DNA of 13,620 bases from Oligoflexus sp. (GTDB lineage Bacteria > Bdellovibrionota_B > Oligoflexia > Oligoflexales > Oligoflexaceae). A model generated the notes under the pieces. That model worked only from the letters and a program-made list of their open reading frames with translations, was not told where the DNA came from and ran no database searches. A program made the position numbers and the translations under genes. The stretch lies in assembly GCA_041736305.1 (NCBI GenBank), contig JBGSTX010000037.1, forward strand, positions 1 through 13,620. Reading direction: 5' to 3'. Positions 940-13,325 of this stretch are shown here, piece after piece. Within the stretch, counting starts at the first letter, position 1, and each line of letters begins with the position of its first letter.

Positions 940-1305
940 ATGATACAAGCCTATATGCGAGCCATTTTTCGTCTCATCCTGCTAGGATGGGTCGCTCTGA
1001 ATCTCGTTATGGCTTCTGTTCCTCGCTGTGATATGGTCCTGGCGGCTGTCCACAAGTCAGTCACGGCCTCTAACGAACATGATCACTGTGCACCCCAGAA
1101 AACCGGCAAAGGTCCCATCCTGCATGATCATCGCATCTGCGCCTGTGTCCTGGCCAAGCTGGTGTTCGGCCGCACAAGCGAGATCCGTCGTGATCCTATT
1201 GTAACTCGTCAGCCACAAGCTCTATCTGTCATTGAGTTCACCTATCAATTTGCTGTCATCCAACATACAGCAAGCATTGAAACTCCTCCCCCGCGCGCCG
1301 TTTAA
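940..1305 (+). CDS. Small Cys/His leader protein with C-terminal PPPR (paralog 1; candidate DUF2946/CruR-like uORF)
   Basis: Hydrophobic N-terminus, then NLVMASVPRCD, EHDHC, ICAC and IETPPPRAV*. Motifs are shared with three other ORFs in the window. Start could be 940 or 955. Confidence 0.75.
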   Translation: MIQAYMRAIFRLILLGWVALNLVMASVPRCDMVLAAVHKSVTASNEHDHCAPQKTGKGPILHDHRICACVLAKLVFGRTSEIRRDPIVTRQPQALSVIEFTYQFAVIQHTASIETPPPRAV

Positions 1306-1424
1306 TTCATCCCCATTCAACTTATGCGTTTTGAACGAGCAGAATGCTTCTGCGTTCCGGCGTGAACGGCAAATGTTTGCCATTCCGCAACGGAGAGGGA
1401 TGTATGTGCGCAAAGGAGAAACTC

Positions 1425-2108
1425 ATGCAAACACGTCGCAGTCTTTTCATGAAGGCTGGAAATGTACTGGCCGCGCTTACGGTTTATCAGGTGCTGCCGA
1501 AGGAAGCCTTTCGAGTCGGTGAGACAGCCTATGGTGCAGTGAAGACCTTTTCAGATATTCGTGTTCGCTGCATCGGTACGGTTCAGCCTATGCTGGCCAG
1601 TGATCTGATCAAAGGTGTGGCCTTTACCGGAAAAGTCGATGAGGGTGGCCACTCTCATACCTACACGGTATCTCCCGAGCAAATCGCTCAGATCAATGCC
1701 GGTCAGGTCGTGACACTGCGTTCAAGTCAAGGAACAGACGGCAGTGGTCCCCACACTGTGACCATCGATCCCACCCAGCTGCTTCCTGGTGGCAGTTCCA
1801 TTCAGGTGTTTCAATCAGAAAATGGCAATATGGTTGCCTTGCGCTTGGGCAAGGGGGCGCAGCCCTATCTTTATGTGGAGGGAGCGGAAGGCTTGGATCC
1901 TGAGACAGTGAAAGTCTGTATTGGTTTGGCCGCCAGTTGCCAGGCCGAAGGATCCTTCAGCAAGATGGAGCTGATCTCCGAGATCAAGGATCGACAGATC
2001 TTTGGATCGGTTCAGCGCCTTGAGGTGCAAGGGGAAAGTTTGGTCCATGTCTGGGCTACGACTCAGTCCGGTGCCCAGACCAAGGTTGTAGCCAAGATCA
2101 GCAAGTGA
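1425..2108 (+). CDS. Tat-exported protein with paired His-hairpin motifs, putative metal-binding
   Basis: AGGAG SD at 1414-1418 before ATG 1425. Twin-arginine signal MQTRRSLFMK plus a hydrophobic stretch. Internal GGHSHTYTV and GPHTVTI motifs. Confidence 0.75.
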   Translation: MQTRRSLFMKAGNVLAALTVYQVLPKEAFRVGETAYGAVKTFSDIRVRCIGTVQPMLASDLIKGVAFTGKVDEGGHSHTYTVSPEQIAQINAGQVVTLRSSQGTDGSGPHTVTIDPTQLLPGGSSIQVFQSENGNMVALRLGKGAQPYLYVEGAEGLDPETVKVCIGLAASCQAEGSFSKMELISEIKDRQIFGSVQRLEVQGESLVHVWATTQSGAQTKVVAKISK

Positions 2109-2131
2109 TGCCAACACGAAAGGATCATTCT

Positions 2132-2431
2132 ATGAAAAGCTTGATAAGCATGGTTGTCGTCCTGTTTGTTGGCGCGTCCTGTGCCAAGGCACCCAGCAAA
2201 CCCCTTGATACAGGGAGAGTTCAGCAATCCACTGCACCTGTGAGTGCAAATGCCCAGAATGAGCATGCTGATCACGAGCATGAGTTGAATGAAATGAATG
2301 CCGAAGCAGAAGCCCCTGCTGGCTCTGTTCGAGCAGAAGACCTTGAGCTACTCAAAACGTGGCCCAAGGCTCAGTATGTAGGCAATGAACAGCTCCAGCT
2401 GAGCTTTCTGCCTAACGTTCCTTTGAACTGA
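2132..2431 (+). CDS. Small His-rich lipoprotein of unknown function (possibly C-terminally truncated)
   Basis: AAAGGA SD, signal MKSLISMVVVLFVGASC ending in a lipobox-type Cys, and an EHADHEHE tract. Confidence 0.65.
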   Translation: MKSLISMVVVLFVGASCAKAPSKPLDTGRVQQSTAPVSANAQNEHADHEHELNEMNAEAEAPAGSVRAEDLELLKTWPKAQYVGNEQLQLSFLPNVPLN

Positions 2432-2504: not shown

Positions 2505-2858
2505 TCAGGCCTTTTTCACCCAGGCCGTACACCAGCCTTTGGACTGCACACAGCCTGTGGCAATCATGGTACACTTGCCGACGTCTTTTCCGTTTGGCGT
2601 GAATAGCTGACAGTTTTGACAGCTTTGATCCTTGCCTTCAACGCCCATTTTTGCCGGGCGATTGGCGGCCTTGGTGGCGTCCGGAACGTACTTGATGGCC
2701 GTCGCCACGGGATCATTCTCTGGGACTGGTTTGCAGGGAACTTCCTCTGCAGCCAGCGCTGGCATGGAGGCCAGCAAGGAGGCCAAGGGAAGACCCGCGG
2801 CGGATAGAGCCAAGAGCTGACGGCGGGACATGGAAAATCTGTGGTTCTGCTTAGGCAT
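2505..2858 (-). CDS. hip: High-potential iron-sulfur protein (HiPIP), Tat-exported
   Basis: SRRQLL Tat signal, DPVATAIKYVPDA, and the HiPIP [4Fe-4S] pattern CQNCQLF...C...GWCTAW. GGAG SD before ATG 2858. Confidence 0.92.
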   Translation of the reverse strand: MPKQNHRFSMSRRQLLALSAAGLPLASLLASMPALAAEEVPCKPVPENDPVATAIKYVPDATKAANRPAKMGVEGKDQSCQNCQLFTPNGKDVGKCTMIATGCVQSKGWCTAWVKKA

Positions 2859-2915
2859 GATCGTTCTCCAAAAAAGTTGGTGAGGCAAACGCTCAGGCCA
2901 AGCGTTCACCTTATG

Positions 2916-4247
2916 TCAAAAACCTGTCCCCTGAGACAGGTCTGAGGGACTGGAGCTATGCAGTGTGAGAAGAAAGCTGAGCAGATCACTCAGCTCCTGA
3001 TCCGTGATGGTAAACCCAGGTTTGACCAGGGCATCCACATAGGGATTCTGACCCGCAGGGGTAGTCGCGGCGCGGCCACCCGCTGCATAATGACGAATGA
3101 CAGCTTCCAAAGTCGGCAAGGATCCATCGTGTCCGTAGGGTCCGGTCTTCCCTACAAAACGCAACGCGGGCACACGAAATTGTCCCATCAACTCCGGCCT
3201 CTTTTCCAATTGGGCAGGAGTCGCAAAGCCCTCATTGCGACTGGGATAGGCACCGTGACCATCCACATTGTATAGACCGGTATTATGAAAGCTTTGCCTT
3301 TGAAAGTAGCGCCCATTCCTCACGTATTGATAGGAATTGCTCAGCATGATTCCTGAGTGGCAGCGGCTGCAGTTCAAAGTTTCACCGGAAGCGAGTGGAG
3401 CCAGACCAAAGAATAGTCGAGCTCCCTTATCTTCCGAGCTTGAAAAACTTTCCATTCCCTGCAAAAAGCGATCAAAACGCGTGTCAAAAGAAATGAGGCT
3501 TCGTTCATAGGCCGCCAGGGCCGCAGTTAAGTGATTATAGTCAATTCGCCCCTTGGCGAAGTCCTCAGGATAGGACAGCTGAAATACTCGCTGGAAGAGT
3601 TCACGGTAAGCCGGGTCGCTCTCCAAGATCCGCTGGAGCGTTTCCTGCTCACGGCCGCGAAGACCCATCTCCACCGGGTCGTCGCCAAAGAGTGGGATGC
3701 GAGCCTGCATTTCCAGGATCGGAAACACAGGATTGGCCCATGTGAGAGTGGAGTAGTAGGCGACATTCAAAAGAGTGGGACTGCTGCGAGGCGTATCCGC
3801 TCCATCCACGCCTTTCGAAGTGGCGAGGCCATCTGTGAAAGCACGATCGGACTGATGGCAGCTGGAGCAGCTGATATTTCCTGGTGCCTGATGCACCGCC
3901 GAGTACGATAGGTTCGTGTCGTTGAAAAGACGGCGGCCAAGCTCGATGATGTCTTCATTCAGAAACGTATCCCGAGTCAAAGGCGGGTCGAGGCGCTTGT
4001 TCTGAAGCCGGCCCAAAGGAAGATAAGGCTCGGGGTAAGCTCGAGGAATCCTATCGGCGAGCCATATCTTGTATGCGTCGTGTAAGGCCAGAGTCTCTGT
4101 ATCCAGATCTTCCGTATAAGCACTTTCCGCCTCATCGACCTGAAACTTCTGCCAGAGAGAGGCGGCCAGTGAGCCCTGCCGCTCATCTGCTGAGCAAGCC
4201 CCAAAGGTGAGTGGCAAAAGTGCGATGATGAAGCGGAATGCTTTCAT
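2916..4247 (-). CDS. mbnH: Di-heme cytochrome c peroxidase/MauG superfamily, MbnH-like lipoprotein (copy 2)
   Basis: Two CxxCH motifs (CSSCH, CSRCH), LGRRLF, TWANP, FHNTGLYN, FRVPALR, HDGS..TL..VI.HYAAGG, lipoprotein-type signal (TFGAC). Directly downstream of an MbnP-like gene. Confidence 0.85.
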   Translation of the reverse strand: MKAFRFIIALLPLTFGACSADERQGSLAASLWQKFQVDEAESAYTEDLDTETLALHDAYKIWLADRIPRAYPEPYLPLGRLQNKRLDPPLTRDTFLNEDIIELGRRLFNDTNLSYSAVHQAPGNISCSSCHQSDRAFTDGLATSKGVDGADTPRSSPTLLNVAYYSTLTWANPVFPILEMQARIPLFGDDPVEMGLRGREQETLQRILESDPAYRELFQRVFQLSYPEDFAKGRIDYNHLTAALAAYERSLISFDTRFDRFLQGMESFSSSEDKGARLFFGLAPLASGETLNCSRCHSGIMLSNSYQYVRNGRYFQRQSFHNTGLYNVDGHGAYPSRNEGFATPAQLEKRPELMGQFRVPALRFVGKTGPYGHDGSLPTLEAVIRHYAAGGRAATTPAGQNPYVDALVKPGFTITDQELSDLLSFLLTLHSSSPSDLSQGTGF

Positions 4248-4256
4248 AAAAACCTC

Positions 4257-5204
4257 TTATGGAGCCCAGGAAAACAGGCTTTGCTCGTAAGGTGCCTTGG
4301 CATTGGCTACTTCCAGACCCAGGGCCTTGAAGGCGAATGCGCAGTTGGGGGCGTTTTCCGTCATGACCTTATTGCTGTTGTTGCAGGCGCTTTCCAAGGA
4401 GTTGACAAAGCTTGTGGCATCGACGGGAAACAGCCGGCTGAGGTCCATCTGCACTGTGACTTTGGAGGCATCGGCATCCTGCAGGTGCTGAATGGGAATG
4501 CTGATCTGGCGTTTATTGGCGCTGGTCAGAGCGTTCAGCATCTTCTTGCTTGTGCCGCTGTGCATTTCGATCTGAATATCAGCTGGGAAATGCTGCCACA
4601 TCCAACCCATATCGCTGGGGGCAAGGGCGGCCGGAACCTGAGTCAGGGCTTCATCCATAGGCGCATAGGGGAGTCCGAGCTGAAAGCGGATTTCCTTGTA
4701 AACGCCCTGCTGCAGAAGTCCTGTAATCTCCGACTTCAGCTTTTTCGTGGCATCAGAAGACGCGCAGGAACTTTCCAGGAAGTTCAGCAGCGAGATGCCA
4801 TTGCCTGCGGCATCCACATACTGCAGGTTGCTGCTGTTATCGGCGACGTCGAGTTCAATGCGCTGCTCTTTGCCTTGATCATCGACCAAGGTCAGATTCG
4901 ACACGAAAAGACGCAGGTCGGTAAAGATCTGACCACTTTGCAGCGAGGCGGCTGTTTTATCGGTGCAGACCAGCTCATCCGCTCCCACCTTGGCCTTGAA
5001 TTGAACGGCCACCTTTGAGGATTGGGTTCGATCCAGAACCGGAGGGGCAGGCACAGGTTCGGCTACTGGCAGAGTTACAGGCGCCGGCGCGGGCGCTGGG
5101 ACGGTGGAAGCATCTGCCGTCCGCGTCTGATCTACAGACTTTGAGGACTGCGAGCCGCATTGAACGACGAAGGGAAGCAGAACCGGAACCAAAAATCTTT
5201 TCAT
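4257..5204 (-). CDS. Divergent MbnP-like WxW copper-binding lipoprotein (copy 2)
   Basis: Signal ending in Cys, Pro/Ala-rich linker, F.AKVG...L.C, DLRLFVSNLTL, RFQLGLP and MGWMWQ (WxW). Collinear with the 7614..8504 protein and adjacent to mbnH. Confidence 0.7.
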   Translation of the reverse strand: MKRFLVPVLLPFVVQCGSQSSKSVDQTRTADASTVPAPAPAPVTLPVAEPVPAPPVLDRTQSSKVAVQFKAKVGADELVCTDKTAASLQSGQIFTDLRLFVSNLTLVDDQGKEQRIELDVADNSSNLQYVDAAGNGISLLNFLESSCASSDATKKLKSEITGLLQQGVYKEIRFQLGLPYAPMDEALTQVPAALAPSDMGWMWQHFPADIQIEMHSGTSKKMLNALTSANKRQISIPIQHLQDADASKVTVQMDLSRLFPVDATSFVNSLESACNNSNKVMTENAPNCAFAFKALGLEVANAKAPYEQSLFSWAP

Positions 5205-5213
5205 GAGAACTCC

Positions 5214-6422
5214 TTATTCCATAACCGCAGTGGGAGAATCCGAGCTGATCCGGTAGGACCAGACGAATCCCACAACACCCATATCTTTCTTGCGACCGCT
5301 GGTAAAATCGCGAAGCCATTCGCCGCGCAGTTTCAATTCCGGATTCCATTGCCAATTATAGGCCGCACTGATGCGATAAGGATCCTTATCACCTATGAGA
5401 TTGGCAGCAGTGGCAAGAGCTGTCGCCGCCGCTCCTGAGAGTTCGTTTTCAAAAAGTAGGCGCTCGTAGCGGATGGCGGCCAGCTGCGTATCGGTTTTGA
5501 AGTAAGCGCTGGCCCAGTGAGCTCGGGCCTTACTTTCAAGCGGCGATAGACGGGTGGCATCACGCAATTCTCCTTCGCTTCGGCTCAATTGCATTTCCCC
5601 TTCGGCCCCGAATGTTATCTGTTCTCCGAATTCCAGACTGGCATGAAGGCCCTGCACCTGGGTGCGACCTGAGAACCAGTAGACGGGAATGGTGCTGGTA
5701 TCGAGTCCATGATTGTGCTCAGCACTGTAGCGATTGTCTTTCCGCCTGTCCGCTTCACCCTGATAATGAAAGAGCCCAAAGCTCCAGCCCAAGCCGGCGG
5801 TCCGCATACTGTGCCGGAGGTAGACATCGAAGGCTCCTTTGGCAGCATCCTTACGTTCTGCAGGAAAGCTGTCGCCTTGCCAGACTTCCAGACCCGTTTC
5901 CAGACCGAGATCTTTCAAGGACGCTCGCGCCCTAAGGCCCATATCGTTATACTGCCGCCCCCAGAACGCGTCATAGACCAGAGGGCTGTCTGAGAATGGC
6001 GTTTGACTGGGATGGGGGCTGTTGTATGGGGTCATGACCGAACTCATGCGGCCGAACTCCAGAACACCTGCGGCTCCGAGCCTCTGACCGACCAGGGCAT
6101 GTTCCAGCTCCAGGCCGTCGGCACCTGTATGCTGGCCGATCTTGATCAAAGCATAAGATGAATTCTGGCCCACGGATCCGCTCAGCATAGCCTCGTCCAG
6201 GTGAAAACCGCGCGGCATGGGCAAGGCCTCACCGCCCATAAGGAAACCAGGAATGATCCAACGTTCGGAGCTCTTGACTCTTGCTAAAGATCTGTAGCTC
6301 CCAGCCACTGTGCTTTGGGCTGACCAACCGTCAGGTATGCCCAGGGTCGCTTCTTCTTCATGAGCCGAAGCCAGGCTGCTGACTACGAGAAGGGGTAAGG
6401 CGCGAAGCGCTATGCGTTGCAA
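5214..6422 (-). CDS. Outer-membrane beta-barrel porin/receptor without a plug domain, His-containing (putative metal channel)
   Basis: Sec signal ending ASA, then HEEE. Alternating amphipathic strands (YNWQWN, LRGEW, VGFVWSY) and an EHNHG loop. At about 400 aa it is too short for a canonical TonB-dependent transporter. Confidence 0.7.
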   Translation of the reverse strand: MQRIALRALPLLVVSSLASAHEEEATLGIPDGWSAQSTVAGSYRSLARVKSSERWIIPGFLMGGEALPMPRGFHLDEAMLSGSVGQNSSYALIKIGQHTGADGLELEHALVGQRLGAAGVLEFGRMSSVMTPYNSPHPSQTPFSDSPLVYDAFWGRQYNDMGLRARASLKDLGLETGLEVWQGDSFPAERKDAAKGAFDVYLRHSMRTAGLGWSFGLFHYQGEADRRKDNRYSAEHNHGLDTSTIPVYWFSGRTQVQGLHASLEFGEQITFGAEGEMQLSRSEGELRDATRLSPLESKARAHWASAYFKTDTQLAAIRYERLLFENELSGAAATALATAANLIGDKDPYRISAAYNWQWNPELKLRGEWLRDFTSGRKKDMGVVGFVWSYRISSDSPTAVME

Positions 6423-6433
6423 AGTCCTGTTCC

Positions 6434-7600
6434 TTATGGTTGACGCCAGGGATCAGCAAAGCGGGGATTGCTGATGAAATCCTGATCAGTAAAACTTTCC
6501 AAAAATTCGATGAGGTCATTTTTTTCAGCTGCATCGAGTGTGAAGCCTGTGACGAATCCGTCCTTAAATGGATTTTTCCGTCCGTCCCCACTCAGGGGAC
6601 CACTGGTGATATGACGTCCGCCCGCAGCATAGAAATCGAGGACCTCGCTGAGCGTGGCAATGCTGCCGTCATGCATGTAGGGGGCTGTCACTGCAATATT
6701 GCGTAAGGAGACAGCGCGGAACTTCCCCATATCGCTGCTTTTGCCGCTTATTTCGAAGATCCCACGATTGCGACTGGGGTAATCGCCCTGGCCGTTGATA
6801 TTGAAAAGACCGGTGTTGTGAAAGGGTCTTTCGATAAAACTTGTCGTGCGATCGAAGTTCGAGTCCGTAAGATTGTAGCTGCCGTGGCAGTGAAAGCATT
6901 CCATGCGTTCGCTGAAGAAAAGTTGGCGACCTCGCTGGGCGCCGGCGGAGAGGGCAGCAGGTTCACCCCGCTGAAAGCGATCGAATGGGCTATTGAAGCT
7001 GGTAAGGCCGCGAACGAAGACAGCCAGCGCGTCCACGATTTGATCGCGAGTATAAAGTTCATTTGCGTCAGGGAACGCAGCTGCGAAAAGTTCCTGATAG
7101 CGAGGGTCGCTGCGCAGCTGATCCTGAACGCGCGGAAAGCTGCTCTCGGTGAGGCCTTGTTCAATCGGATTCTCGCCAAAAAGAGGCAAAAGAATCTGCT
7201 GCTCGAGTTGCCTCAGGTTGGGATTGGCCCAGGTCAATGTCGGAACGTAAGCCACGTTCACAAGGGACATTGAACTGCGCGGATGACTTTCCCCAGTCGA
7301 CCCCAGGGCCAGCGCGCGTCCGTCGGTAAAGGCCTTATCCTGCTGATGGCAGGATGCGCAGCTTTGTGTTTCGTTCCCGGAGAGGCGTTTTTCGTAAAAC
7401 AGATGGCGTCCGAGTTCAAAGCGTGACTCGGTCATGGGCTTGTCAGGGGGAATGAAGGGCAAGGGGACATTGTCAGGGATATTCCAGGCAAAGGTTTCCG
7501 CACTGGTATCCTCCTGGCTTTGAAAACGCGTTTCACTCTGATCCTGGCATGCCGGGCTCAGCATCAGGGTGAAGGCGATAAATTGCAGGGTGAAACGCAT
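6434..7600 (-). CDS. mbnH: MbnH-like di-heme enzyme (cytochrome c peroxidase/MauG superfamily), lipoprotein (copy 1)
   Basis: Start reassigned to ATG 7600 (GAAAGG SD; MRFTLQF...SPAC signal). CASCH and CFHCH, LGRHLFYEKRLSGNETQSC, TWANP, FHNTGL, PYMHDGS, FYAAGG. Confidence 0.92.
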   Translation of the reverse strand: MRFTLQFIAFTLMLSPACQDQSETRFQSQEDTSAETFAWNIPDNVPLPFIPPDKPMTESRFELGRHLFYEKRLSGNETQSCASCHQQDKAFTDGRALALGSTGESHPRSSMSLVNVAYVPTLTWANPNLRQLEQQILLPLFGENPIEQGLTESSFPRVQDQLRSDPRYQELFAAAFPDANELYTRDQIVDALAVFVRGLTSFNSPFDRFQRGEPAALSAGAQRGRQLFFSERMECFHCHGSYNLTDSNFDRTTSFIERPFHNTGLFNINGQGDYPSRNRGIFEISGKSSDMGKFRAVSLRNIAVTAPYMHDGSIATLSEVLDFYAAGGRHITSGPLSGDGRKNPFKDGFVTGFTLDAAEKNDLIEFLESFTDQDFISNPRFADPWRQP

Positions 7601-7613
7601 GGCAGACGACCTT

Positions 7614-8504
7614 TCATTCCACGAAAAATACGCTCTGAGATTGACCATTGGCAGGCTGCCCCGTTGTGAGATCCAGCCCGAGCTTTTTGAAAAATTCGGA
7701 ACACTCGCTATCGGCTTTCTCGGACATGCAGCCTGGTGTGTCTTTAACATCGGAAGCCAAATCAAGTCCTTCCACGAGTTTTGCAAAGTCAAACACTATG
7801 GTGTCACGCTGAGGTTCGAAGTTATCCAGTTCCACATAGGGACGATTATCACGGGCACAGCTCACAGTTTGACCCAGTTCGGCTTCCCCACTACAATGGG
7901 TGCTGCCGAGGTGAAAATTATAAACCGTGGCGGAAAAATCGGGGTCGGACGGTCGGGTGATGCCGCCTTCAGGCGCAATATCCAGGCGCATGAATTTGTA
8001 GCCACCTTGCCAGGACCAATAGAGGCTCGGTGTGTTCAAAGGCCCCTGGGCCTGGGCTATATCGATATGATTCATATCGGGAGGAACGCCGATACGAAAG
8101 CGCAGGCCTTGGATAGCCGCTCGACTGCTGATGGTTCCGCTCGCTTCGGTATGCGTGGACTTGACTTCACCTTCGCAGTTGTCCGCACGATCCTGAAAGT
8201 CGACGAGCGCCAGCCTTGTATTTTGCCATTCATTGCTGTCGAAACTCAGACTCTCGCTTTGTCCATCGGCTGTTATCACTTCAACGTCGCTGACGAAGAA
8301 GCGAAAATCCTTCAAACGTGCGGTAGACTTGGAAAGGCCAAGATCGGCCAGCCGAGCGTCACAGTTTATAGCTGTGCTGCCTGCCCGGGCGGCGAACGAT
8401 AGCCGCAGGCTCTGGGCTGTGATTGTCTTGCTGCTGTCTCCTCCACAGCTGACCGCTCCGGCGAGAAGGCAAGGCGCAAGGAAAATGCTGGCCGATGTTC
8501 GCAT
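7614..8504 (-). CDS. mbnP: MbnP family copper-binding lipoprotein (copy 1)
   Basis: Lipobox AVSC, DFRFFVSDV, WQ....ALVDF, GLRFRIGVP..MNH, PLN...YWSWQGGYKFMRLD (WxW), FHLGSTHC, GCMS. Directly upstream of mbnH. Confidence 0.9.
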   Translation of the reverse strand: MRTSASIFLAPCLLAGAVSCGGDSSKTITAQSLRLSFAARAGSTAINCDARLADLGLSKSTARLKDFRFFVSDVEVITADGQSESLSFDSNEWQNTRLALVDFQDRADNCEGEVKSTHTEASGTISSRAAIQGLRFRIGVPPDMNHIDIAQAQGPLNTPSLYWSWQGGYKFMRLDIAPEGGITRPSDPDFSATVYNFHLGSTHCSGEAELGQTVSCARDNRPYVELDNFEPQRDTIVFDFAKLVEGLDLASDVKDTPGCMSEKADSECSEFFKKLGLDLTTGQPANGQSQSVFFVE

Positions 8505-8515
8505 GGATAGTCTCC

Positions 8516-9167
8516 TTAGATTTCCGACGCACTGAGTTTAAGATTCTTCTGCTCGGCTACGATTTTTTGCAGATCGGCCGCCAGCAGTCCAGGGGCCAAA
8601 GGCGGATCATAGACGGCTCGCCATTGACCCGCGGGGTCGACCAGGAAAATTTTGGGGGAATGAGCCATCATGTAAATGTCCACGTTATGAGGGTCCTGCT
8701 GCTCTTTGGCAAAGCCAACGTGGAAGCCGGAGGCGAAAGCCTTGACCTGATCGACTGTCCCTGTCACGCCGCGGATCGCAGGGTGATAATTGCGAACGAA
8801 GTCCGCAAGCTTGCTGGGCTCATCGTGCTCGGGATCGACGGTGATCATGACGAACTGAAGCGCGCTGAGATCGCTGGGCGTGAGGCGGGCCATCTCGCTT
8901 TTGAAGTAGCCCATCACCATGGGGCAGACTGTGGTGCAGCGGGTAAATCCGAAGAAGACCAGGGACCATTTCCCTTGCCATGACTCCTTGGTGAAAGGCT
9001 GCCCGTTGGCATCCGTAAGGGCAAAGTCGGGGAGCTTTCTTTTGAGCCTTGCCCAGTTCCTCGCCTTTGATATCCAGACGCTCGACCTGTGGCTCGAGCC
9101 GTTGGATGATAGAGAATATGACGACGAGACTGAAGACAAGTATAAATGGCCACTTCAATTGCTTCAT
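8516..9167 (-). pseudogene. sco: SCO/SenC copper chaperone split by a single-base frameshift near 9036-9043 (or a sequence error)
   Basis: The N-terminal membrane anchor MKQLKWPFILVFSLVVIFSII...KAQK (ATG 9167, AAGGT SD) is in one frame. LPDFALTD...GFTRCTTVCP (CxxxC)...TVDPEHD...MAHS is in the +1 frame. Confidence 0.85.
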
Positions 9168-9284
9168 TATGCAACCTTATTCGAAGGTATGGACAGAGGA
9201 TCGCCCACGACTGCTTATACGTCGATGGACATGAGATGCACCCAAGCCTATGGATTCTGTTTATGGAAAAAAATGAGGAGGCGT

Positions 9285-9656
9285 TCAGACTCGAGGCGGG
9301 GGAGCTTCGACTTCAAGAATGTTGCTGGCCATGACCGTGAGTGAGGGAAAGACGAGGACCCGCTCCGACGTCGGTACGAAGCGATAGTCGCGTTCCGTGA
9401 CGACGTCCGGAAGAGTAAAGACGAGGCAGCTGAGGAGATGGCATTGGCAGAGACCGGCTTCCATCAACTGGGCACCTTTGTCAGCTGGCTTTGACGCAGA
9501 CTGATGGCAGGACATCTCCACTTTGGCAAGCTTGTCTGGCGTATCTTGCAGGCTGCTCCAGACCTCTTTCACAAAGCCACAACGGGGGACCGATGCCAGC
9601 ATGAGGTTTCCGCTCAGCAGGAAAATGCCAAGAAAGAGCATTAGTTTTCTGAACAT
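9285..9656 (-). CDS. Small Cys leader protein with C-terminal PPPR (paralog 2), first gene of the sco-mbnPH operon
   Basis: MFRKLMLFLGIFLLSGNLMLASVPRCG, MSCH, LCQC and VEAPPPRV*. Start could be 9656 or 9668. Confidence 0.8.
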   Translation of the reverse strand: MFRKLMLFLGIFLLSGNLMLASVPRCGFVKEVWSSLQDTPDKLAKVEMSCHQSASKPADKGAQLMEAGLCQCHLLSCLVFTLPDVVTERDYRFVPTSERVLVFPSLTVMASNILEVEAPPPRV

Positions 9657-9780: not shown

Positions 9781-9842
9781 CCGAGCGTTTACTTCAGGAG
9801 TCGACGATTTTGTTTTTGCTTTCGTGCAGCCATGTCAAAACT

Positions 9843-10133
9843 ATGAGCAGTCGTATGGGATTACTGCTGCTGGCCTGCAATCTTTTTGTCTGCTCCATTC
9901 CCCGCTGTGATTTTCTGCGCGCACTTGTGCAGGATACCAAGGACACGTTGCTTGCTGATCAAGATGACCAGAATTCGATGCATCACTGCCATGAGAGTCC
10001 CACATCGGACTCGCGAGATGCGACGCAGCTCAGCGAGCCCAGGCTCTGCAAATGCGAGCTTCTGAGTTTCGTAAGCACTTTGCCACCGGGACCTATACGA
10101 TGTGCAAATTCTGTGAGGTCTTGCGCTCTTTGA
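9843..10133 (+). CDS. Leader-family paralog 3, lacking the PPPR tail (possibly truncated)
   Basis: NLFVCSIPRCD, MHHCH and LCKCELLS align with the other paralogs. The ORF stops 25 aa after CxC, and the alternative frames give no PPPR tail at the expected distance. Confidence 0.7.
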   Translation: MSSRMGLLLLACNLFVCSIPRCDFLRALVQDTKDTLLADQDDQNSMHHCHESPTSDSRDATQLSEPRLCKCELLSFVSTLPPGPIRCANSVRSCAL

Positions 10134-10510
10134 ATATTTTGCTGCGAGTCGAACATTATTTTAATCGCCTGGCCATCCTTGTGTTGGTCATAAACATCTG
10201 CGTGGTATCCATCCCACGCTGTGATAGCGTCTTCGCAAGTCTTAAACATCAGCTCCTTCATGAGGATGGTCGCACGGCTCTGGATTGCGGCCAGGCTGTT
10301 TCCCCGATTCACAAGGGGGAGACTATTCAGAATGCTTCGCTCTGCCGCTGCTCTATTTTGAAGTTTCTATATTTTACCGATAGCGCACTCAGGATGGATC
10401 GCTTTATCGTCTTCGATAGGCGCTTGCTTCTGCTCATTGAATTCATCGAACCTTTGCGCCTTCTGTCGCAGACCATTCAGCCTGACCCGCCTCCTCCACG
10501 ACAGATATAG
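10130..10510 (+). CDS. Small Cys leader protein with C-terminal PPPR (paralog 4)
   Basis: INICVVSIPRCD, LDC, LCRC and PDPPPPRQI*. Start uncertain: TTG 10130 overlaps the paralog 3 stop (TTGA) and has GAGGT upstream; ATG 10100 is an alternative. Confidence 0.75.
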   Translation: MNILLRVEHYFNRLAILVLVINICVVSIPRCDSVFASLKHQLLHEDGRTALDCGQAVSPIHKGETIQNASLCRCSILKFLYFTDSALRMDRFIVFDRRLLLLIEFIEPLRLLSQTIQPDPPPPRQI

Positions 10511-10611
10511 ACGGACCGACGTTTCACCATGAGTCCTGATGCGCAAAAGTCAGATGAGGGCCTCCTTGCGCCCGCTTGTTCCTACATTCTGTCAAGAAAG
10601 GTAAACTGCTC

Positions 10612-11997
10612 GTGGATTTTCCAATCTTCCACTTGGATTTTCTGAACAATAGATTCCTGATAGGCATTATCGCTGTCCTCCATGTTCTCATCAATCATCC
10701 GCTGGCTGTTGGGGGTATTCCTCTGGTTGCGCTTTTGGAATGGAAAGGCACCAAAGCTCCTGAAGGCCAATCGAAACTCTGGGACGATCTGGCTTTTCGC
10801 ATCCTCTTCGTCTTCTTCATTGTGACCACAACGGTTGGGGCCATGACGGGGGTGGGGATTTGGCTGTCGGCCTCGCTGGTGAATCCCACCGCCATTGGAA
10901 GTCTGATCCGGGTATTTTTCTGGGCCTGGTTTGTCGAGTGGATAGTTTTCGTAACCGAGGTGGTCCTGATTCTCTATTACTTTCTTTCATGGCACAAACG
11001 ATCCCAGGATAAGCGCAAACATGTCCGCCTCGGATTCATACTGGCCTTCGCTTCCTGGGTTACGATGGCTATTATCACGGCCATACTCGCTTTCATGATG
11101 GATCCTGGAAACTGGCAGACAGATCGCTCCCTTTTACAAGGATTCCTGAATCCTTTGTATCTGCCTCAGCTGCTCTTCCGCACACCTTTGGCTATGGTCA
11201 TGGGCGGAGCTGCGGGTTTGTTTCTTTTGCCATTTTTCACCAAAGGCAAGGAGCAGCTCCGGCAACAGGCTGGACGTACCATTGGGAAGTGGATGCTGGC
11301 CTGGTTGCCTGTGCTCGGGGCTGCCAGCGTCTGGTATTACCTGGCTGTACCTGATGCCATGAAGGCTAATCTTTCGGTTGCCAACACAACGCAGGAGTTC
11401 ACGAATTGGTATGAAGGTTTGGTTTATTTGATGATTACGGCGATTGCTGTGGTGACGGCAGTGGCGTCTGCGGCTTCCCTGGGGCGCCTCAAATCCAGCA
11501 GTTTCTTGAGCATGGTGCCCTTTGTGATCCTGCTCATGCTTTTGAGTCACTTTGAGCGCGTTCGTGAGTTCATAAGGAAACCCTATGCGATTGGACAGTA
11601 TCTTTATTCCAACGGTCTGAGGGCCGCTGACTATCCTCTTTTCAAGCAGGATGGTCTTTTAAAGCATGCTGCCTATTCAAGTATCAAAGAGATTACGGCT
11701 GACAATCGTCTGCAGGCCGGCCGCGAAATCTTTGTCATCGCCTGCTCGCGCTGCCATACTCTGAACGGCATCAATAATGTTCGCAATAACCTTCTGAAAA
11801 TGTATGGAGAGCCACCCTATTTCGTCGAGAATCTGCGCAAGTTCATGGGTGTCATGCACACGGCCCGAGGCTATATGCCTCCATTTCCAGGCAATGAATC
11901 GGACGCCGACGCTTTAGCTCGTTACCTGATTTATGTCAGCGAGAATGAAGATGTCATTCCTGGATCTCAGACCACCGGCTTGCGACTTACACGCTGA
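10612..11997 (+). CDS. Cytochrome bd oxidase subunit I (CydA)-like membrane protein fused to a C-terminal cytochrome c
   Basis: GTG 10612 after an AAGAAAGG SD. Multiple TM helices with CydA-like segments IAVLHVLI, VGAMTGVGIW, VEWIVFVTE, FMMDPG, FLNP and REFIRKPYAI. CSRCH heme motif and a YMPPF Met ligand candidate. Confidence 0.8.
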   Translation: MDFPIFHLDFLNNRFLIGIIAVLHVLINHPLAVGGIPLVALLEWKGTKAPEGQSKLWDDLAFRILFVFFIVTTTVGAMTGVGIWLSASLVNPTAIGSLIRVFFWAWFVEWIVFVTEVVLILYYFLSWHKRSQDKRKHVRLGFILAFASWVTMAIITAILAFMMDPGNWQTDRSLLQGFLNPLYLPQLLFRTPLAMVMGGAAGLFLLPFFTKGKEQLRQQAGRTIGKWMLAWLPVLGAASVWYYLAVPDAMKANLSVANTTQEFTNWYEGLVYLMITAIAVVTAVASAASLGRLKSSSFLSMVPFVILLMLLSHFERVREFIRKPYAIGQYLYSNGLRAADYPLFKQDGLLKHAAYSSIKEITADNRLQAGREIFVIACSRCHTLNGINNVRNNLLKMYGEPPYFVENLRKFMGVMHTARGYMPPFPGNESDADALARYLIYVSENEDVIPGSQTTGLRLTR

Positions 11998-12008
11998 AAG
12001 GAAAAGCC

Positions 12009-13325
12009 ATGTCAACTCCTGCGAACGGGCCCATGCCCCATGATATCCCTTTGCCTTTGCCTGCTCCCGAATGGCTATTGGTATCGCTATTGGTCTTCTC
12101 TTTTCTGGTTCACTTGCTTTTCGTCAATCTGATGGTGGGAGGGTCGCTCCTGACCCTTGCTTTTGAGTGGGTCGGATTGAAACGCAAAGATTTTGATAAA
12201 CTGGCTCATGAGATCGCCCGCACCGTAACGGTTAACAAGAGTCTGGCTGTGGTTATGGGTGTGGCTCCTTTGCTGCTGATCAATACACTCTATACAGTTT
12301 ATTTCTATACAGCGAATGCCCTTACCGGTCTTGCATGGATCATGATCGTTCCCCTGGTCGCGACAGCCTTTCTACTGACCTATCTCCACAAGTACAGTTG
12401 GGAAAGACTCAGCGAGCATAAGCTGCTGCACCTGGCGATCGCCGTTGCTGCCTCGCTTATTTTTCTGTCCATACCCCTTGTGTTTCTGGTGAATATCAAC
12501 CTGATGCTGTTTCCGGATCGATGGCGGGATGTTGAAGGCTTTGTGAGTGCACTGATGCTGCCGAATGTCTGGCCGCGGTATCTGCATTTTCTGTCTGCCT
12601 GCTTTGCCGTGACTTCACTCTTTCTTGTGTTTTACTTCAGGCGTGCTAGCTATCCTTGGGATTCAAATTTCAAGGATCTGCGGCGCAGCGAGGCTCTTAG
12701 GATTTTCTACAGCATCACTTTGATCAGCAGCTGTGCTCAGTTCATCATCGGCCCCATGGTCTTCGTCACACTTCCGGCTCAGGGCGTCTCATGGACTATG
12801 AATGTGATTCTTGGTCTTGGGATAGTGTGTGCGCTTCCCGCCCTTTACTGGACCTGGCAGGAAATTGCGGACAGCAGCGAGCAGCGTGGTGAGCGGGCTG
12901 TGAAAATTGCTTTGATGCTGAGCCTGACCGTTATCTGCATGGTCTCGGCTCGGCACGTCTATCGTTCGAAATCTCTGAACGCACACCAACAGAAGATGGC
13001 GGAGCATACTGAAGCCTATGGACAGGCGGTGCTTGACGCGCAAAAAGCTGCCAGGCGCGAGAGCTTAAAGCAGGGCCAGGGCGATCCAGGAGAAAGGGTC
13101 TTCAAGAGCTACTGCACGGCCTGTCACGCTTATGGGAACCGATTGGTCGGTCCTCCTGTGACCGAAATACAAGCTTTGTATCAAGGTCGGCCTGAAGGCA
13201 TTGCTCAGTGGGCAAAAGCGCCGGGCAAGAAGCGAGCTGATTACCCACCCATGCCCGCAATTCCCATAAGTGAAAAAGAACTGCTGGAGGTGGGCGAATA
13301 TATGCTCAAGATGAAAGGCGACTGA
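12009..13325 (+). CDS. Second CydA-homologous membrane subunit fused to a C-terminal cytochrome c
   Basis: AAGGA SD. VHLLFVNLMVGG, VVMGVAPLL, PRYLHF, about 8 hydrophobic segments, then CTACH, VGPP and PPMP. Confidence 0.78.
   Translation: MSTPANGPMPHDIPLPLPAPEWLLVSLLVFSFLVHLLFVNLMVGGSLLTLAFEWVGLKRKDFDKLAHEIARTVTVNKSLAVVMGVAPLLLINTLYTVYFYTANALTGLAWIMIVPLVATAFLLTYLHKYSWERLSEHKLLHLAIAVAASLIFLSIPLVFLVNINLMLFPDRWRDVEGFVSALMLPNVWPRYLHFLSACFAVTSLFLVFYFRRASYPWDSNFKDLRRSEALRIFYSITLISSCAQFIIGPMVFVTLPAQGVSWTMNVILGLGIVCALPALYWTWQEIADSSEQRGERAVKIALMLSLTVICMVSARHVYRSKSLNAHQQKMAEHTEAYGQAVLDAQKAARRESLKQGQGDPGERVFKSYCTACHAYGNRLVGPPVTEIQALYQGRPEGIAQWAKAPGKKRADYPPMPAIPISEKELLEVGEYMLKMKGD

Follow-up and report, generated by a model that had tools for sequence, protein, structure and literature searches.

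The locus described here raises the question of why small proteins that have few residues in common should keep a cysteine motif and a C-terminal proline motif at one fixed distance, and what that distance may measure. It lies in a stretch of 13,620 nucleotides from Oligoflexus sp. (contig JBGSTX010000037.1), hereafter called the window, in which ORF translation gives four small paralogous ORFs, p1, p2, p3 and p4. A sequence-only reading of this DNA had proposed that the length of the segment between the two motifs, rather than its sequence, is under selection, as would be expected of a linker that spans the ribosome exit tunnel and part of the translocon and so places the cysteines outside while the ribosome is paused. 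The features of the four ORFs are the following (positions are those of the window):

940 to 1305, plus strand: p1, a leader-type protein of 121 aa; the ORF is open from 898, and ATG 940 is the start in database entry P0001
1021-1029, plus strand: PRC codons of p1
1087-1089, plus strand: middle Cys of p1
1138 to 1146, plus strand: CxC motif (CAC) of p1, residues 81-83 in ORF numbering from 898
1147 to 1284, plus strand: 46-residue linker ("ruler") of p1
1285 to 1296, plus strand: PPPR of p1 (CCT CCC CCG CGC), residues 130-133, followed by A, V and TAA
9285 to 9668, minus strand: p2, 127 aa, GTG start
9441-9449, minus strand: CQC of p2, residues 74-76
9303-9440, minus strand: linker of p2
9291-9302, minus strand: PPPR of p2, residues 123-126, followed by V and TGA
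9843 to 10133, plus strand: p3, a truncated paralog with helix, IPRC, HHCH and CKC; the ORF is open from 9810
10130 to 10510, plus strand: p4; the ORF is open from 10052, with TTG 10130 and ATG 10100 as candidate starts
10343-10351, plus strand: CRC of p4, residues 98-100 in ORF numbering
10352-10489, plus strand: linker of p4
10490-10501, plus strand: PPPR of p4, part of PPPPR, the last PPPR being residues 147-150, followed by QI and TAG

From its N-terminus p1 consists of a hydrophobic helix, SVPRC, the middle Cys, CAC, the linker and PPPRAV before the stop; the segment 1138-1305, to which the sequence-only reading was attached, runs from the CAC codons through the stop codon of p1. The N-terminus is basic and is followed by the strongest hydrophobic 19-residue window of the protein, with a mean hydropathy of 2.0-2.1, which AlphaFold2 modelled in p1 and p2 as a helix at pLDDT >95; judged from hydropathy and structural model, it is a putative export or anchor helix. 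The length of p4 is 126-136 aa from TTG 10130 or ATG 10100 and reaches 152 aa only with the farthest ATG; TTG 10130 overlaps the stop codon of p3 (TTGA). The p3 protein ends 25 residues past CKC without a proline motif, and the same truncation is found in P0063, which is 68% identical to it, whereas P0057 and P0059, which are related to p3 and of full length, have EPPYPE as their C-terminal motif, with a distance of 49 from the last Cys to the last Pro. We read p3 as a putative decayed copy.

Spacing in the paralogs and across the family

Translation places 46 residues between CxC and PPPR in each of p1, p2 and p4, in agreement with the counts made by hand before, and p3, which has CKC and no PPPR, had rightly been left out of this claim. 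The upstream intervals drift, also as described, with 19/23/26/21 residues intervening between PRC and the middle Cys and 16/19/19/18 between the middle Cys and CxC in the four paralogs. Identity between the linkers is low, as had been stated, amounting in the pairwise comparisons to 5, 9 and 8 of the 46 positions (11-20%), while 21-26 of the 46 residues are of the same class. Three gap-free paralogs are weak evidence by themselves, and therefore the spacing was tested across the family.

A search profile (A2) was built from p1, P0002 (65% identical to p1), p2 and p4 and compared with 1.84 billion representative proteins, giving 64 matches at E ≤ 0.001. Four of them were dropped, namely P0037 (a repeat protein of 636 aa that matched falsely), the fragments P0065 and P0068, and P0063, which is truncated like p3. 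In the 60 kept matches the distance was counted from the second cysteine of the CxC motif up to the last Pro, defined as the Pro before R/K (before E in two cases), and was 49 in 49 proteins, 48 in 9 and 50 in 2. A plot of this distance across homologs had been put forward as a check of the claim, and in a set of 71 proteins, consisting of the 60 and of closer relatives from word-indexed searches (p1 and p4 included, P0005, a short-start copy of p2, dropped), the distance was 49 in 60, 48 in 9 and 50 in 2. Expressed as the gap between CxC and PPPR, it was 46 in 27, 45 in 7 and 47 in 1 of the 35 members that carry PPPR.

The adjoining upstream segment behaves differently, since the distance from the Cys of PRC to CxC takes 17 different values in 70 proteins, ranging from 34 to 59, with an SD of 4.15 versus 0.39 for the ruler (Levene p = 2.5e-12, a value that is only indicative because the sequences are related). 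A profile made from gap-free sequences could itself favour gap-free matches; yet P0056 and P0057, which match the profile only to about position 83, both have a distance of 49, and P0067, which matches it only to position 96, has a distance of 48. The length constraint on the Cys-to-Pro spacing is real and, as judged from these sequences, under selection.

The two motifs at the ends of the ruler are conserved as well. In the numbering of P0001 the columns P28, R29, C30, C50, C67, C69, P116 and P118 are invariant or nearly so, and both cysteines of CxC (C67 and C69) are invariant across the family, forming with PRC and the middle Cys, often in an SCH context, a four-cysteine cluster. All 71 measured members carry CxC, where DUF2946 proteins such as CruR have CXXC. 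The C-terminal motif is [E/D]-x-P-[P/Y]-P-[R/K] and lies 2-3 residues from the stop codon. If the last Pro is taken as position 0 in the 59 members analysed at a distance of 49, Pro stands at -2 and at 0 in 59/59 and R/K at +1 in 57/59, and position -1 is divided between P (28/59) and Y (28/59). Two or three residues follow the last Pro in 50 of 70 members. Among the 71 proteins the ends are PPP[RK] in 37, PYP[RK] in 27 and of other types in 7; RAPP, the end motif of DUF2946 and CruR, occurs in none of the 71. The PPYP[KR] end, carried by about half the family, is no polyproline run.

Family libraries gave no name to these proteins. Scans of p1-p4 against Pfam (E ≤ 10) and NCBIfam (E ≤ 0.01) found no match, and the Pfam model DUF2946 (PF11162) matched none of the four paralogs and none of 70 family members at E ≤ 10, the Pfam scan of the 70 members yielding only scattered chance matches at E ≥ 0.04. 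A word-indexed protein search with a 70-sequence profile returned 7 matches, none of them Pfam-labelled; tblastn of p2 against plasmids gave one chance-level match (E = 7), and an alignment of the p2 group found 0 loci in genome contigs. In the ESM Atlas the named clusters closest to p1 and p2 were CzcI, DUF2946 (12-25% of members) and DUF6660, with scores of 0.95-0.96; only 120-134 of 256 features were shared, whereas true members of a family typically share 170, so that these neighbours may serve as leads only. Homology to CruR or CutF is unproven, because DUF2946 matched none of the 70 members and NCBIfam none of p1-p4. A CxC-type family with PPPR or PPYPK ends is not mentioned in the portion of the CruR, CutF, DUF2946 and ApdA literature examined, which was found by names and not by motif strings.

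Linker conservation, predicted structure and alternative explanations

The proposal that length rather than sequence is selected in the linker held for its first half, the length being kept within ±1 in 71/71 proteins, and is overstated in its second, since conservation is seen at about a dozen positions of the linker. The most frequent residues, counted from the last Pro as position 0 among the 59 members, are the following:

-47: L, 43/59
-46: L, 35/59
-44: F, 35/59
-39: L, 31/59
-38: P, 28/59
-30: I, 26/59
-28: F, 36/59
-26: P, 28/59
-20: L, 30/59
-18: F, 48/59
-4: E/D, 50/59

It follows from these conserved positions that the part of the linker within tunnel range probably works through its sequence too. 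A linker that spans the membrane was considered and rejected, the best 19-residue hydropathy of the linkers being only 0.9-1.4 versus 2.0-2.1 for the N-terminal helix.

Three other explanations of the fixed length were weighed. The simplest holds that no selection on length is involved, the paralogs being gap-free through shared ancestry and indels being rare over 46 residues; three sequences, all paralogs of one locus, would be too few to exclude it, but across the family 60 of 71 proteins agree exactly in this length and none of the 71 departs from it by more than 1, at an identity to p1 of mostly 17-31% (at most 67%), while the adjoining segment of 34-59 residues has 17 different lengths, and we take this explanation to be extremely improbable. 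The fixed length could instead be a demand of the mature protein after export, which might have a compact fold or a binding surface, as a small beta-rich periplasmic copper chaperone would; its structure would then forbid insertions and deletions, and the proline end would be an interaction motif and not an arrest site. Such a reading would account for the dozen conserved positions and for the strand-like pattern of hydrophobic residues two positions apart (i and i+2; I-30/F-28 and L-20/F-18), the p1 model has a pLDDT of 67-87 over residues 81-121, and a chaperone role with a polyproline interaction motif was what the 2021 paper first proposed for CutF (PMC8456105). The two AlphaFold2 models, built from 70 and 72 sequences for p1 and p2, respectively, speak against it: p1 (mean pLDDT 73.7, pTM 0.31) was modelled with helices at residues 2-25 and 27-42 and with neither helix nor strand in residues 43-121, and p2 (mean pLDDT 69.8, pTM 0.28) with a helix at 2-42, a 5-residue helix at 110-114 and otherwise coil over 43-127. 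Hence no strand and at most one 5-residue helix is predicted after residue 42, and the structure prediction that had been suggested as a check gave no folded linker domain in either protein. A profile search of the PDB found no match (best E 1.8), the linker identity between the paralogs is 11-20%, and CutF is reported to be quickly degraded after export and undetectable in cells (PMC9973294). The models, which come from a shallow alignment, do not support a folded domain as the reason for the gap-free linker, although its C-terminal part, with a moderate pLDDT, may have some structure or a bound state, and we regard the compact-fold explanation as unlikely.

It could also be argued that what mainly fixes the ruler is an extended arrest peptide, with ~30 final residues held in exact tunnel register as in SecM and the hydrophobic LLxF element beside CxC having its own place at the tunnel exit or the translocon, the position of the cysteines then being a by-product. 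F-18 (48/59), L-20, F-28 (36/59), I-30 and E/D-4 are indeed within tunnel range of the last Pro, and L-47, L-46 and F-44 come directly after CxC. However, the poorly conserved stretch from -45 to -31, which also never changes by more than one residue, would be left unexplained, and in CruR the spacing itself matters (PMC9426467). We give this account a small chance of being right as it stands, and it is a refinement of the main explanation, in which the spacing positions the cysteines at the pause, rather than an alternative to it.

Neighbouring genes and spacers

The paralogs p1, p2 and p4 each head a gene row on their own strand, a putative operon, and this position is seen in this window alone. 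The rows and spacers are the following:

1306 to 1424, plus strand: spacer from p1 to the next gene, 119 nt, with AAGGAG 7 nt before ATG 1425
1425 to 2431, plus strand: two genes downstream of p1
9168 to 9284, minus strand: spacer from p2 to the SCO1 gene, 117 nt
2505 to 9167, minus strand: gene row behind p2, consisting of SCO1/SenC, MbnP, MbnH, a 402-aa protein, a second MbnP-MbnH pair and HiPIP
10576 to 13325, plus strand: genes downstream of p4, at 10576-11997 and 12009-13325

The first gene after p1 (1425 to 2108) encodes a product without a family match that starts with MQTRRSLF, which by our own reading looks like a Tat signal, and the second (2105-2431) a small His-rich protein. In the row behind p2 the 402-aa protein is without a family match, and the second MbnP-MbnH pair is more divergent than the first. 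Both genes after p4, which are separated from it by a spacer of ~65 nt, encode long hydrophobic, membrane-like proteins ending in a cytochrome c domain. The downstream genes look like copper-supply genes; like CruR, each of the three paralogs stands first before copper-related genes and is followed by a long spacer (p2 117, p1 119 and p4 ~65 nt).

The spacers showed little structure of their own, the three of them folding no better than shuffled sequence (z -0.80, +0.68 and -0.85). Behind p1 there was no significant structure (z -0.80) and the Shine-Dalgarno site was not sequestered in the predicted fold; behind p2 there was neither a significant fold (z +0.68) nor a terminator-like hairpin. 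Terminator-like sites numbered 15 in the window versus 13.2 in shuffled sequence, with none in the spacers behind p1, p2 and p4, the promoter scan stayed at background level, and no Rfam family reached its gathering score in the window. The p2 spacer is C-rich and G-poor directly after the stop (C/G 1.9 in the first 60 nt), and except directly after p2 the C/G enrichment after stop codons was weak.

A putative nascent-chain sensor and its known counterparts

The motifs, the ruler and its conservation across the family are observed here, as are the operon position and a linker for which no fold is predicted, and on this ground we think it probable that p1, p2 and p4 are nascent-chain copper sensors of the CruR/CutF kind; what we infer for them is that translation is arrested, that metal is bound, that the protein is exported, and in which direction regulation works. 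The ribosome would pause at the proline motif with the last ~30-35 residues, including F-18, L-20, F-28 and I-30, inside the exit tunnel, and CxC, 49-51 residues back from the peptidyl-transferase centre, would be just out of the ribosome at the pause, having entered the cytoplasm or, where SecYEG is docked, having passed into its channel in the direction of the periplasmic side. Copper binding or disulfides at the cysteines may then alter the tension or the conformation of the nascent chain, and this may alter the dwell time of the ribosome at the end of the leader ORF and so set the expression of the downstream genes. Since the spacers of p1 and p2 are long (117-119 nt), no masking hairpin is predicted and the downstream genes look like copper-supply genes, we favour a CruR-like route, in which the ribosome would protect from premature termination, over the hairpin-melting route of CutF. 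The earlier interpretation of this locus is thus partly supported, its core being already published for CruR and CutF.

A bolder proposal, which we offer tentatively and with the chances somewhat against it, is that the proteins with CxC and a PPPR or PPYP[KR] end make up a branch of nascent-chain copper sensors that has gone unrecognised and is missed by Pfam, in which the selected property would be the geometry of the paused ribosome, alone or together with a translocon, and not a fold, PPYP[KR] would be a new arrest motif, and three working copies with one decayed copy would give separate copper thresholds to the operons.

Among the Atlas leads, CzcI (PF28244) and DUF6660 (PF20365) resemble the window proteins in size, with 109-132 aa in the Atlas rows, but differ from them in that p1-p4 and the family members gave no Pfam match. 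In the Atlas the CzcI clusters carry names of cation efflux or transporter proteins. ApdA, ApdP and SecM share with the window family a C-terminal arrest site that contains proline, upstream residues that contact the tunnel, and an arrest released or kept by events on the chain outside the ribosome. In contrast, these proteins monitor the activity of Sec/YidC and not a metal and are described without a Cys cluster (PMC10951233); the motif is RAPP in ApdA and ApdP and RAGP in SecM (PMC10951233; PMC9426467).

CutF of Rhodobacter capsulatus (Öztürk et al.) is a protein of 118 aa with a Sec signal, a C69xxxC73 motif and two further cysteines (PMC8456105, PMC9973294). It ends in PEPEGPPPRL, and the PPP motif and EF-P are reported as required (PMC8456105; bioRxiv 10.1101/2025.02.05.636593). 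According to the published geometry, ~30 residues in the tunnel and ~17 across the membrane would bring the Cu motif into the SecY vestibule on the periplasmic side (PMC9973294), and the authors note a distance of 45 residues; in the read-out, a hairpin that covers the next ribosome-binding site melts. Copper is reported to prolong the stall in CutF and to relieve it in CruR (PMC9973294; bioRxiv 10.1101/2025.02.05.636593). The likeness to the window family comprises a Sec-type N-terminus, which has a putative counterpart here, four cysteines, the E-G-P-P-P-R-L end, which fits the [E/D]-x-P-P-P-R plus 1-2 residues of the window family, and the several paralogs per genome and SenC neighbours that have been reported for CutF. 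The lengths of p1 (121 aa), p2 (127 aa) and p4 (126-136 aa) are below the limit of 150 aa used for CutF-like proteins (Ozturk et al. 2023), and by the rule-based definition, under which 29 sequence clusters have been published, these three would class as 'CutF-like', the signal peptide being judged from hydropathy and model, whereas the truncated p3 lacks one of the features that the three share. On the other hand, CutF has CxxxC (C69, C73) with 43 and not 49 residues from C73 to P116 (PMC8456105), and its control of a detoxifying oxidase works by way of a short spacer, in which a hairpin covers the ribosome-binding site; no such hairpin is predicted here. Because the last Cys and the last Pro of CutF are 43 apart, the ruler is family-specific and not universal, and a universal ruler for the whole CutF-like class is thereby ruled out.

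The closest counterpart is CruR (Bp2923) of Bordetella pertussis, a DUF2946 protein of 145 aa whose gene opens an operon repressed by copper (Roy et al. mBio 2022, PMC9426467). It has CXXC at 90-93 and RAPP at 139-142 with 45 intervening residues, this spacing is kept within 1-2 residues in >2000 DUF2946 proteins, and an insertion of +5 strongly reduces copper control (PMC9426467). In the mechanism proposed by its authors, copper induces the chain to fold during translation, the force of this folding relieves the stalling, and Rho terminates transcription when the ribosome has left (PMC9426467); in vitro the arrested ribosome had P141 in its P site and P142 in its A site (EMBO J 2025, PMC12992588). 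The likeness includes the small first gene of a copper operon, the N-terminal export signal (putative in the window family), the Cys motif, the long spacer and the operon partners, among which the CruR survey lists Sco and MbnPH-like genes (PMC9426467), as well as the distance of 49 from the last Cys to the last Pro with 3 residues to the stop, the same as in p1 (PMC9426467); the window family keeps its own spacing at 48-50 in 71/71 proteins and at exactly 49 in 60, a variation as narrow as that described for CruR. The differences are the CXXC and RAPP of CruR versus the CxC and the PPPR or PPYP[KR] that we know here from sequence, the absence of a match of the Pfam DUF2946 model in all 70 members, and the Rho-dependent termination and copper-relieved arrest established for CruR, which would be putative in the window family. 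The ruler equals that of CruR (49, then 2-3 residues) despite differing Cys and end motifs and no detectable sequence match.

No new kind of mechanism is opened by these proteins, the design with a fixed spacing being known from CruR and CutF. Set apart by the Pfam profile and by the published motif descriptions, they are probably, as far as sequences can tell, a new family of a known kind of regulator. The strongly conserved ruler lends support to the view, already in print, that a nascent chain senses metal according to the place of its cysteines at the pause, and it widens this view to proteins that go unrecognised in current domain libraries and that adjoin MbnP/MbnH/Sco genes of putative copper supply. 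Together with the known systems, the family provides natural variants for finding out what the spacing measures, with CxC next to CXXC and CxxxC, PPPR next to PPYPK and RAPP, and a distance of 49 next to one of 43.

Genes downstream of the leader-type proteins

The small leader-type proteins p1, p2 and p4, which carry a CxC motif, a linker of 46 residues and a terminal PPPR, are each followed by a same-strand row of genes. Behind p1 (window 1425-2431, forward strand), the first gene encodes a product beginning MQTRRSLF, read here as a twin-arginine-like signal. The product of the second is small and contains a segment rich in His and Glu (NEHADHEHELNE). Searches of Pfam and NCBIfam gave no match for either protein. 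The region 10576-13325 (forward strand) encodes two adjoining proteins of 438-473 aa, long, hydrophobic and membrane-like, both ending in a C-terminal cytochrome c (CBB3-type) domain and otherwise matching no family; these are the apparent targets of p4.

The gene row headed by p2 contains two MbnP-MbnH pairs, at 2916-5204 and 6434-8504 (reverse strand), the downstream one being far more divergent (MbnP scores 86 bits where the cut-off is 140; MbnH, 303 bits where it is 363). The SCO1/SenC gene of this row (8516-9167, reverse strand) appears frameshifted: a plausible start with a membrane anchor and the PF02630 domain occupy different frames. Features of this row are:

5214-6422, reverse strand, 402-aa protein with no family match, between the two MbnP-MbnH pairs
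8820-9167, reverse strand, open reading frame with a plausible start and membrane anchor (ATG 9167, MKQLKWPFILVFSLVVIFSII...), in one frame
8516-9139, reverse strand, open reading frame with the SCO1 domain (PF02630), in a different frame from that of ATG 9167

The N-terminus belonging to the frame 8516-9139 itself has no hydrophobic segment. The switch between frames must lie near 9030-9060, a region with short runs of A and C; either an error in sequencing or a genuine disruption could account for it.

Variant and truncated family members

Of the 71 family members (alignment A5), 29 have a C-terminal PPYP with K, R or E after it; examples are P0011 and P0013, relatives of p4. Tyr here replaces the middle proline, and therefore no polyproline run is formed, while the prolines at -2 and 0 (the last proline being 0) and the basic residue that follows at +1 remain fixed. 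The truncated paralog p3 (9810-10133, forward strand) has no proline motif at all, and the same truncation was found in P0063, a relative from elsewhere that is 68% identical to it. The p3 stop TGA (10131-10133) overlaps a TTG (10130-10132) of the p4 frame, giving TTGA, a stop/start arrangement typical of translational coupling.

Two pairs of database relatives, P0009/P0011 and P0013/P0015, each join a p2-like to a p4-like protein. Within each pair the listed sizes of the longest source sequence agree (7303 and 48001 bases, respectively), which suggests that these paralogs are co-located in other genomes too.

The N-terminal helix and the first Cys

Hydrophobic N-terminal helices were located as follows:

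985-1029, forward strand, in p1
9581-9625, reverse strand, in p2
10175-10219, forward strand, in p4

Mid-way in the helix stands an Asn (N21 of P0001, the database entry for p1), invariant in the 16 closest relatives and the majority residue across the 70-member alignment. The helix is always closed by [S/T]-[I/V]-P-R-C, in which P and C are invariant and R nearly so. Cleavage by a signal peptidase immediately upstream of this motif, if it occurs, would leave the first Cys near the mature N-terminus, placed as reported for Cys5 of the copper-sensing leader peptide CutF.
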